From assembly GCA_951406725.2 (NCBI GenBank), contig OX597823.1, positions 20,274,001 through 20,338,000 on the forward strand: a stretch of 64,000 bases of DNA, in the 5' to 3' direction. The stretch is from Octopus vulgaris (Eukaryota). Below the pieces are notes generated by a model, which did not search any database, was not told the DNA's origin, and was given only the letters and a program-made list of their open reading frames with translations. The position numbers were made by a program, and so were the translations under genes. Of this stretch, positions 7,352-61,681 are shown in pieces (position 1 is the stretch's first letter; every line of letters starts with the position of its first letter).

Positions 7352-7627
7352 CGAAAAGTCACTGGAAAAAGGATATATGTATTTGCATTGGGACCCTTCC
7401 ATCGAATACCGGTGATTGTCGTGCGCTGATGACGGGTCAATACCCAGAAACTGCAGTTCGTGCGTATCACTTAGGTTGATGAGGGAAGGATGACCTCCCT
7501 TTGCAAATACCGAAGTGCACAGAAAGTGTGTCAATAGCCAGCTGGAGAAGATGTTCTCCTGGGGTTACAAGCTACAGTAACATCCACCCTTAGTGGTTAG
7601 CCATATTTAGATGGCAAATATACTTCA
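7349..7627 (+). mobile_element. Short non-coding element embedded in (TAA)n and carrying an HHR (possible R4/Dong-associated 5' region or non-autonomous partner)
   Basis: TAA runs on both sides; its 3' part recurs at 58983-59087 and, antisense, at 52703-52753. Confidence 0.65.
7411..7471 (+). ncRNA. Type I hammerhead ribozyme (minimal, palindromic stem III)
   Basis: cgtgcg-CTGATGA(7426-32)-c-gggt(caat)accc-a-GAAA-C-tgca-GTT-cgtgcg; stem I extends via gtgat/atcac; C.A mismatch at the base of stem II. Confidence 0.7.
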
Positions 7628-42158: not shown

Positions 42159-42193
<35 letters not shown>

Positions 42194-42198
<5 letters not shown>

Positions 42199-42833
42199 AA
42201 TCAAGGAACGGCCATAATAGGCCATTCACCCACTAGAAATAACAGCCAAAAGCTTTAACCGCAAAATAACATTAATACCGTAAACCAGGAGAAAATTGAA
42301 AAACTTTTACCCTGTAATTTCTTAGACGATGCACCGTTTCATCTACCGTTTAATGGTAAACTAACCTGATTAAATTAAATCAAGCCAATCCACCATAGGC
42401 CCTTAGACTCATCAGTAAGAAATAGCCAAATCGGGACAGATATTTTTCACGAGGCATTCCTCTTGCTGCCTCGGCAGTATCTGACCTAAAATTTTCAAAT
42501 CGTCGCACTCGCGCCAAATTTATCGGCAGCAAAAGAACCACCGATTCCGTTACGGAACTAACCAGAAAATTCATAATTAATCAATATAGGGTGGCAAAAA
42601 AATTTTGTAGAATTCTTTTGCCACCAGCGGCCTAGTAGGAAAAAATTAAATAGTCATAAACCATTTTTACGTTCAACATCACAATCAAGGAACGGCCATA
42701 ATAGGCCATTCACCCACTAGAAATAACAGCCAAAAGCTTTAACCGCAAAATAACATTAATACCGTAAACCAGGAGAAAATTGAAAAACTTTTACCCTGTA
42801 ATTTCTTAGACGATGCACCAAAATTTTTTTGCC

Positions 42834-42842
<9 letters not shown>
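42194..42842 (-). mobile_element. Retrozyme-like element: ~1.3 tandem units of a 484-nt HHR-containing monomer inserted in (TA)n
   Basis: Identical 142-bp direct repeats at 42194-42335 and 42678-42819; terminal 24-bp inversion 42819-42842 equals the reverse complement of 42584-42607; related copy at 49244-49726. Confidence 0.85.
42317..42423 (-). ncRNA. Intact type I hammerhead ribozyme with long stem II extension
   Basis: AUUUCUUA-CUGAUGA-GUCUA[...]UAGAU-GAAA-C-GGUGCAUC-GUC^UAAGAAAU; 8-bp stem I, all core bases present; predicted cleavage between 42325 and 42324. Confidence 0.92.
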
Positions 42843-42882
<40 letters not shown>

Positions 42883-49243: not shown

Positions 49244-49247
<4 letters not shown>

Positions 49248-49718
49248 ACAATAAAGGAACGGCCATAATAGGCCATTCACCTACTAGAAATAACAGCCAA
49301 AGCTTCAACCGCAAATAAGCGTGGAATAAACTGCCTGCATCAGTTGTTGACTGCCATGACACTGCATCCTTTAAGGCCCTCATGCTTTCCGAAATCCGTC
49401 GAAACTACACCTGATTATATATACACTTTAGATGAGTTGTAGTGCACCTGAGCACTGTACACAATTATTATTATTATTATTATTATAAAAAGAAATTACA
49501 GGGTAAATGTTTTTAAATTTTCTCCTGGTTTACTGAATTAACTTTTATTTGCGGTTGAAGCTTTGGCTGTTATTTCTAGTAGGTGAATGACCTATTATGG
49601 CCGTTCCTTTATTGTTGATGTTGAACTTAAAAATGGTCTATGACTATTTTAATTTTTTCCTACTAGGCCGCTGGTGGCAAAAGAATCCTACAAAATTTTT
49701 TTTGCCACCCTATATTGA

Positions 49719-49726
<8 letters not shown>
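49244..49726. mobile_element. Second locus of the 484-nt retrozyme family: inverted arm (49244-49318), CR1-like LINE 3' end (49319-49486), sense part (49490-49726)
   Basis: 49490-49726 matches the reverse complement of ~42574-42807; the middle translates AWNKLPASVVDCHDTASFKALM and ends in (ATT)n; (TA)n on both sides. Confidence 0.85.
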
Positions 49727-60113: not shown

Positions 60114-60215
60114 GACCTGAAGAGTGAGTATACTTTTAAATTGAATTGTTTTTCGATTAAATTTAACTTTAATTGTAATTCGAATTTAAATTATAGCCAC
60201 GAAACGTACGGAGTC
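60114..60215 (+). ncRNA. Hammerhead motif with long AT-rich stem II, probably inactivated at the cleavage triplet
   Basis: gac-CTGAAGA-gtg[~71 nt]cac-GAAA-C-gtac-GGA-gtc (GUA>GGA); upstream of an AT-rich tail and (TA)n at 60360. Confidence 0.55.
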
Positions 60216-60704: not shown

Positions 60705-60708
<4 letters not shown>

Positions 60709-61621
60709 CAACAAGAATGACTCCGGTAATTTGGTATGAAGAGAGGTACCTCTCTTCATATTATAAGATATCGCCTTCTGTTAAACCTATGAATATATTC
60801 CTTTGTTTTTCCCTCTGCCATCTTTCTTAGTATATATTTTGACCCCTAATATGTTCACTTGATTAATAAGGCTTTTCCCCCCAGTTAATAAGTACTATGC
60901 CTACTCATAATAAGTGATAGTCTCTTTCTCCAAATTTGAATAAATTTTAGATTTATATTTTTTCCTTTATTCTAACGTGTCAAAGTACTTGGAACTTATA
61001 GACCAACTGTTGTGATGATGTGCATAGGGTTTGTAAGGTCTCTGCTTTCTCTGTGAATGTTATTGTGACCATTGACCTAGTTCTCCTAACGCCGAATCTG
61101 TTCATCAAATAGTAGTAATTGTCATTTAGTTGTGACAATGCTGTCTTCCACATAAATTCCTTATATGGAGCTATGACATCCCCTTTTCTAAAATTAGAAA
61201 ATCTTTATTGTCTCCTTTCATTTGTTCTTCCCTCTCAGAACCTTACAGTAATCTGGAACAACTGAATCTTAGTCAGTCAGTTGATGGGCTCCACTTCCTC
61301 AAATGTTCTTAAAATTTAAATCCACATATTTGTCTATGTATCTACCTTCTCTATAATGTTGCCACTTGATATGAACATTTTTGTATTAATGGAAAACCTC
61401 TATAATTGGCTGATGAGTGCTCAGCATTTTAAAACTGTTGTAATACTTACAACATTTAATAAAATGATGTAGTACGAAACGATCGTACCAAATTACCGGA
61501 GTCATTCTTGCTGCTTATTTTGATTATAATCATCCCACGGATTTTTATGGATAACACCATTCAGAATTCTGATGCATCTAAATTAAGTACCATATTCATT
61601 TGAATCTAAATTTTTGCTGAA

Positions 61622-61625
<4 letters not shown>
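60705..61625 (+). mobile_element. ~920-bp HHR-bearing PLE-like non-autonomous element with a 5' inverted terminus, in (TA)n
   Basis: ~60703-60738 is the reverse complement of ~61484-61519; 3' end recurs at 50733. Confidence 0.75.
61403..61495 (+). ncRNA. Intact type I hammerhead ribozyme with extended stem II
   Basis: UAAUUGG-CUGAUGA-GUGCU[...UGUUGUAA(UAC)UUACAACA...]AGUAC-GAAA-C-GAUC-GUA^CCAAAUUA; palindromic ACGAUCGU; predicted cleavage after 61487. Confidence 0.88.

Positions 61626-61681
<56 letters not shown>

Follow-up and report, generated by a model that had tools for sequence, protein, structure and literature searches.

The window analysed here, a stretch of 64,000 nt from Octopus vulgaris (contig OX597823.1, positions 20,274,001 to 20,338,000), holds a short repeat with a hammerhead ribozyme between two runs of TA. 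It raises the question of what kind of element this is, and how a repeat without a credible reading frame came to be copied into the genome. An initial annotation had taken it for a recent copy of a circular or multimeric RNA of 484 nt. We followed the repeat within the window, through the genome and into its sister lineages, and compared the ends and inner starts of its copies with those of Penelope-like elements from the same genome.

Structure of the window copy

The direct repeat is formed by 42194-42335 and 42678-42819, which are identical over 142 bp at a period of 484 bp, exactly as annotated, and the match is broken on both sides. The annotated tandem element extended to 42842, and up to 42819 this is correct, but its final 24 bases, 42819-42842, do not belong to the tandem. 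They repeat 42584-42607 in inverted orientation, and the insertion therefore consists of two back-to-back arms between TA runs:

42167..42193, no strand, left (TA)n target run
42194..42819, minus strand, main arm of 626 nt (1.29 units), its 5' end truncated 11 nt before the cut site and its 3' end at the fixed site A (42194)
42206..42227, minus strand, hairpin of 8 bp, conserved in the sister lineages, 12 nt upstream of end A
42325..42808, minus strand, predicted 484-nt monomer between successive cut sites
42571..42578, minus strand, site B, where the family has its other fixed 3' end, internal in this copy and lying in the next unit, 100-107 nt downstream of A
42587..42625, minus strand, long hairpin just upstream of site B
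42631..42721, minus strand, 9-bp helix (42721-42713 with 42639-42631) enclosing site A across the unit border
42819..42842, plus strand, second arm, the inverted 24-nt copy of 42584-42607
42843..42880, no strand, right (TA)n target run

The inverted arm overlaps the main arm by 1 nt, and its outer end falls 6 nt before the range usual for B, where it matches the target over TATAT. This stub had been missed in the initial annotation, as had the two fixed ends and the Penelope-type footprint of the insertion. The hairpins before A and B and the helix enclosing A are all kept across the sister lineages, the helix with one compensatory and three one-sided changes, and the monomer as a whole folds with a z-score of -4.8 against shuffled sequences. 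The longest stop-to-stop frame wholly inside the element has 69 codons, which bears out the earlier statement that there is no credible ORF, and the combined RT and GIY-YIG reading frame of an autonomous Penelope-like element is absent from it.

The hammerhead ribozyme

The minus strand carries an intact hammerhead, as had been seen before, with all core parts and three stems:

42317..42423, minus strand, type I hammerhead, the single complete one, with its predicted cut after GUC between 42325 and 42324
42423-42416 with 42324-42317, minus strand, stem I, 8 bp
42415-42409, minus strand, core CUGAUGA
within 42317..42423, minus strand, stem II, 5 bp, G-U closed, carrying an internal loop and a 19-bp hairpin
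42340-42337, minus strand, GAAA
within 42317..42423, minus strand, stem III, 4 bp around a palindromic UGCA loop

The main arm does cross the cut site twice and stop 11 nt past the second crossing, as annotated. The upstream site, between 42809 and 42808, has no core of its own, however, and only one hammerhead is therefore complete. More than one complete ribozyme, which is looked for in a retrozyme, is found at many other loci of the family but not in the window copy, which for this reason is rather a product than a likely source of monomers.

The Rfam model Hammerhead_1 matches 42421-42319 with 22 bits (E 0.012), below its gathering score of 34, and a scan of the whole 64-kb window gave nothing at gathering score. 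The hammerhead region folds with a z-score of -3.7 against shuffles. In the predicted optimum the core is paired with stem III and hence buried, and the active fold lies 3.9 kcal/mol above it, compared with 1.8 and 2.5 kcal/mol in the sister lineages.

The core is intact in 133 of the 135 units of the 484-nt family. Across the lineages the free position 7 is occupied by all four bases and the cut triplet is GUC or GUA; in the oldest lineage the core reads CCGAUGA. Three stem I pairs and one stem III pair show compensatory changes between the 484-nt and 482-nt lineages, with 98.9% of cells paired as compared to 34-45% when the partners are slid, a comparison of two lineages in which two of the five shuffle measures were not above the control. 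Stem II of the 492-nt lineage differs again, with the core kept. The covariation as a whole comes from two or three lineages. This conservation, together with the arm starts that are piled behind the cut (see below), suggests that the hammerhead cuts out 484-nt monomers.

Loop II may pair over 4-6 bp with the strand 5' of stem I, as noted at 42404-42429 (minus strand) and at L123:1447-1490, both by eye and as a predicted helix. This pairing is better formed in the sister lineages than in the 484-nt lineage, and is a candidate pseudoknot. Elsewhere in the window, a further hammerhead-like motif with a 6-bp stem I lies at 7420-7465 (plus strand), and core-like and GAAAC-palindrome motifs stand about 85 nt apart at 60117-60215 (plus strand), where a simple test gave no stem I.

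A young family and its sister lineages

A genome-wide search for tandem copies, as had been proposed with the initial annotation, was made with the 484-nt unit, and the 40 best of 599 candidate loci were scored, a sample that favours long copies. These 40 loci hold 201 matches, the full-length ones 96-100% identical, in dispersed head-to-tail arrays of up to 7.1 units per arm. A unit of 484 nt lies within the size of about 50-970 bp expected of retrozymes. It had been described as long for this class; this does not hold, as families of 51-972 bp are given for vertebrates and invertebrates in the accessible text of Li, Clavereau and Pollet (bioRxiv 10.64898/2026.07.22.740005), and 150-450 bp for metazoan non-LTR retrozymes in that of Cervera and de la Pena 2020 (PMC7229834). 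No coding continuation was found among the 40 family loci or among 39 loci of the sister lineages. The earlier assignment to recent, non-coding, hammerhead-bearing tandem retroelements of the non-LTR retrozyme kind is thus supported, and the 484-nt element is a young dispersed family of a class that is itself already known.

Two sister lineages were found, one of 492 nt that is 87% identical to the 484-nt unit and equally young, and an older one of 482 nt that is 64% identical. The window holds a copy of the former:

49246-49726, 492-nt lineage copy made up of a short A arm and, back to back with it, a B arm

Between its arms lies a LINE-like 3' end of about 170 nt with a short C-terminal peptide and an ATT tail (49316-49489), which we take to be of the CR1/L2 type. 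It immediately precedes the B arm, whose start is at the cut site, and to judge from the sequence it looks like a template jump or a later insertion.

Sequences detectable by profile only (L283:2645-2862, L286:26-508 and L109:6597-6828) make up one or more distant fourth lineages. The weak profile matches in L283 and L286 lie beside Hydra-type Penelope loci but are not tails of these; they are separate, distant retrozyme-like insertions. Other TA-inserted repeats that are otherwise unlike (L077, L104, L139, L291, L301, L307) also carry a 16-nt motif that lies about 45-55 nt upstream of end A, a candidate protein-binding signal.

Assembled contigs from 20 of the 22 listed sequencing runs hold part of the 484-nt unit, and no run is on record as RNA. 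The contigs of four runs that we guess to be RNA span most of the unit and the cut site and also contain parts of a Hydra element; they show neither transcription nor circles.

Two fixed ends and back-to-back arms

With the unit numbered so that 42677 is position 1 and 42194 is position 484, the 3' ends at the 40 loci fall at A (484) or at B (100-107), and the 5' ends are ragged. Back-to-back arms were present at 27 of the loci: 25 are exact A+B pairs, one is the window copy, whose stub ends at position 94, and in one the B end is cut by N. Neither A+A nor B+B pairs occurred. A further 12 loci are single-armed (4 A, 8 B) and one is fragmented. The arms meet with an overlap of 0-3 nt or with short filler.

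To avoid the bias to long copies, a second sample was drawn with a pattern of the A junction. It gave 434 matches, all in the sister lineages, the 484-nt family itself being missed, and 39 loci were taken in order from the first 100 matches listed, with three already-seen loci skipped and one extra cluster with outward-facing A ends (L190) added. A B arm was found opposite A in 35 of these loci, three were single-armed and one was cut by the locus edge. The A+B pairing thus holds in 35 of 35 resolvable back-to-back cases, with L190 as one complex exception. At L190:1-4723 the repeat forms a symmetric palindrome of several kilobases, with A ends and the same unusual junction on both sides, which we read as a later duplication, though it is counted as an exception.

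A (TA)n run abuts the 3' ends at nearly all loci, weakly so at L047 and at one end of L052. Both this target and the 5' truncation with tandem and inverted copies are marks of Penelope-type insertion.

One variant per array

With homopolymer tracts masked, 37 variants in the 40 loci are array-wide and 72 are singletons, and none is shared by only some of the units. The 40 loci fall into 12 haplotypes, and 28 of the array-wide variants are present in both arms. The cut site is crossed exactly in 145 of 148 cases in the 484-nt family and without indel in 59 of 59 in the sister sample. An array-wide variant that goes back to one mutation requires a step from one unit to many, and uniform arrays with exact crossings are what repeated copying of one covalent circle would leave. 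On this sequence pattern the 484-nt family was probably copied from a circle. Of the circular or multimeric RNA initially proposed, the circle is thus the probable origin, and uncut multimers from uniform arrays are a less likely one.

The same class of element and enzyme could have worked with no covalent circle, on uncut multimeric transcripts or by end-to-end jumps on linear monomers. The Poseidon enzyme used unprocessed RNA in vitro, according to the accessible text of PMC11167929. The predicted fold disfavours an active ribozyme, and the LINE-like segment directly before an arm that starts at the cut site (49316-49489) resembles a template jump. We consider this unlikely, as partially shared variants are lacking in all 40 loci, private variants run through both arms of an array, and internal crossings are seamless whereas the one apparent jump junction is not exact. 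A very improbable explanation is that single insertions were expanded later, like minisatellites, by unequal crossing-over or slippage. This has been proposed for vertebrate retrozymes (bioRxiv 10.64898/2026.07.22.740005, accessible text) and would also account for the homogeneous units, but not easily for two inverted arms of several units each, which are fixed at the outer end and ragged at the inner one, have private variants in common and diverge by no more than about 1%. Copying from a circle remains the reading that we prefer for the long arrays.

Arm starts behind the cut

Starts were counted in the outermost segments of the sister sample (38 A arms and 34 B arms). Of the 72 starts, 28 lie in the 39 nt on the 3' side of the cut, compared with two in the 39 nt on its 5' side (p 3e-13 in a binomial test against a uniform distribution). 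The excess is weaker in the 484-nt family, which was sampled for long copies (10 of 67 as compared to 2 of 67, p 0.04). A arms pile up at a length of 93-131 nt and B arms at 200-238 nt, which means that the pile tracks the position and not the length of the arm (Fisher p 7e-4). In all 11 cases where a B arm stops in the pile its A partner stops there too (p 5e-6).

Starts just 3' of the cut, often in both arms together, match what is predicted for a cleaved linear template. The simplest reading of these sequences is that both arms copy one molecule with a 5' end made by the ribozyme. Most of the piled starts lie 4-38 nt inside the cut, beside stem I, in a hairpin with A/T tracts, and slipped A/T filler is found at several junctions. 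It is therefore conceivable that the pile arose because copying stalled at folded RNA or because ends were joined in the adjacent hairpin, and that the hammerhead need not cut in vivo. This seems quite improbable to us. No such pile is seen at stronger hairpins elsewhere, the two arms stop in pairs, a few arms (L033, L161) start exactly at the cut, and the ribozyme core is conserved despite the divergence of the lineages.

Candidate helper enzymes

Two groups of intact TA-targeting Penelope elements were found in the genome, one Neptune-like and one of the Hydra type. The latter was traced from an element in the window:

60706-61626, Hydra-type Penelope 3' end, back-to-back A stub and B arm with ends about 108 nt apart, in (TA)n, hammerhead at 61410 (plus strand)

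This element led to a Hydra-type endonuclease, and from there to young intact families, 98.7-99.4% alike, with frames of 981 and 1091 codons, (TA)n targets and canonical hammerheads that have a hairpin in a long loop II. Their ends lie at +37 and at +149 to +155 from the cut, 112-118 nt apart, and A+B pairs were present in the four loci where both ends could be read; one odd end was found at +14. The Hydra label is based on the motifs RWK, DKT, CxCX5C and YRDD, the first three taken from the accessible text of PMC8557442. Pfam gave no family in the two long Hydra frames scanned, and in BLASTP the similarity of a Hydra frame to the Neptune-like RT was marginal (E 0.037). The loci L310-L322 contain young Hydra-type families with frames of 941-1091 codons that are rich in asparagine.

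The Neptune-like family is likewise intact and TA-targeted, with an RT and GIY-YIG frame of 781 codons and A+B pairs in four of four back-to-back loci. With a spacing of 26-31 nt between its ends and no sequence in common with the unit, it is kept as the weaker candidate for a helper. This two-frame family is young, and at L090-L097 it has a second, upstream frame of 479 codons that belongs to no clear family.

The 484-nt unit had no sequence similarity to Penelope elements in the 40 GIY-YIG and 70 Hydra loci scored from thousands of candidates. For this reason we infer the helper rather than identify it, and from our analysis young intact Hydra-clade Penelope elements appear to be the likeliest one. 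Since target, ends and ribozyme type are the same as in Penelope elements, the unit might also be merely the pLTR of a coding Penelope element, which the initial annotation had named as one of the outcomes that would speak against its reading. We regard this as the least probable of the explanations, hardly to be expected at all. None of the 40 family loci or 39 sister loci runs into coding sequence, the units stand head to tail, and there is no homology to the sampled Penelope ends, although a rare parent is possible among loci beyond the best candidates that were scored.

Comparison with known systems

The accessible text of PMC7229834 reports cleavage and circles for repeats of coral, mussel and axolotl, and proposes a rolling model in which Penelope enzymes make tandem cDNA from circles. 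In that of bioRxiv 10.64898/2026.07.22.740005 such repeats are linked to Penelope terminal repeats, with cleavage in one of nine tested. The accessible parts of these two sources do not describe retrozymes as short arrays dispersed in (TA)n, with two fixed ends and arms placed back to back. The 484-nt family also differs from the retrozymes of these sources in its long hairpin in loop II, and in that we found no sequence link to a Penelope terminal repeat.

Among Penelope-like elements, Craig et al. 2021 (PMC8557442, accessible text) describe inverted copies, often with a tail of 30-40 bp at one end, TA targeting, and Hydra elements of which one is from an octopus. The Hydra clade resembles the 484-nt family in its (TA)n target, canonical hammerhead, tandem and inverted 5'-truncated copies and a tail at one end only. 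The 484-nt family differs from it in having no ORF and a tail of 100-107 nt rather than the published 30-40 bp. The Hydra-type elements of the octopus genome itself come closer, with a long loop II and a tail of 112-118 nt; the distance from the cut to A is 131 nt in the 484-nt family and 37 nt in the Hydra family.

Frangieh et al. 2024 (PMC11167929, accessible text) found that two internal start sites make the Penelope tail, working in vitro with Poseidon of Anolis, which had no strand bias for the start sites and needed neither homology nor ribozyme cleavage. Poseidon and the 484-nt family have in common two RT start sites downstream of the hammerhead, an AT-rich target and the extension of both strands, and Poseidon is predicted to act as a dimer. 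In the octopus family, on the other hand, one site is strictly assigned to each DNA end, both sites adjoin short AU matches with the target, and many of the copies end behind the cut.

A literature search, largely limited to openly accessible text, returned no description of octopus or cephalopod retrozymes or hammerheads. It also gave no account of the 484-nt family, nor of A+B pairing as a strict rule, nor of arms that stop in pairs at the cut site.

Proposed mechanism and meaning

We consider it probable that the 484-nt repeat is a non-autonomous Penelope-like element, that is, an animal non-LTR retrozyme, whose predicted self-cut monomer, linear or circularised, would be copied by a borrowed Penelope-type RT/endonuclease, most likely of the Hydra clade. 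An array would first be transcribed, and its hammerheads would release monomers of 484 nt, as the conserved core and the arm starts behind the cut suggest. Some of the monomers may then be ligated into circles, as shown for the retrozymes of coral, mussel and axolotl. The enzyme would cut a (TA)n run and start copying one RNA from both DNA ends, at A from the one and at B from the other, aided by short AU matches; the ends that we observe have this arrangement. On a linear monomer both cDNAs would stop near the cut 5' end, giving the short fold-backs, and on a circle they would run several rounds, giving the uniform arrays. Finally the two cDNA ends would be joined, with the 0-3 nt of overlap or the short filler seen at the junctions. 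The window copy would be such a product, an A arm of 1.29 rounds together with a B arm that was aborted after 24 nt.

More tentatively, and rather as a possibility than as an expectation, each insertion may be a record of Penelope integration by a dimer. Its subunits would be fixed to different start sites, 100 nt apart on one RNA and read in the same direction, would stop together at the 5' end cut by the ribozyme, and would roll on when the RNA is a circle. The Hydra-clade helper would then recognise its parasite by the shape of the RNA and the spacing of the sites, with no sequence shared between them.

The copying of RNA circles by Penelope enzymes has been proposed as the way in which animal retrozymes spread, and the family bears on this proposal and on how inverted, one-tailed Penelope insertions are built. 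Its substrate is natural and short, its two start sites are mapped, an intact enzyme that is a candidate helper is present in its own genome, and it makes three predictions that can be counted: A+B pairing, paired stops at the cut, and one variant per array. The octopus element is of an ordinary class, with an unusually legible record of its own insertion.
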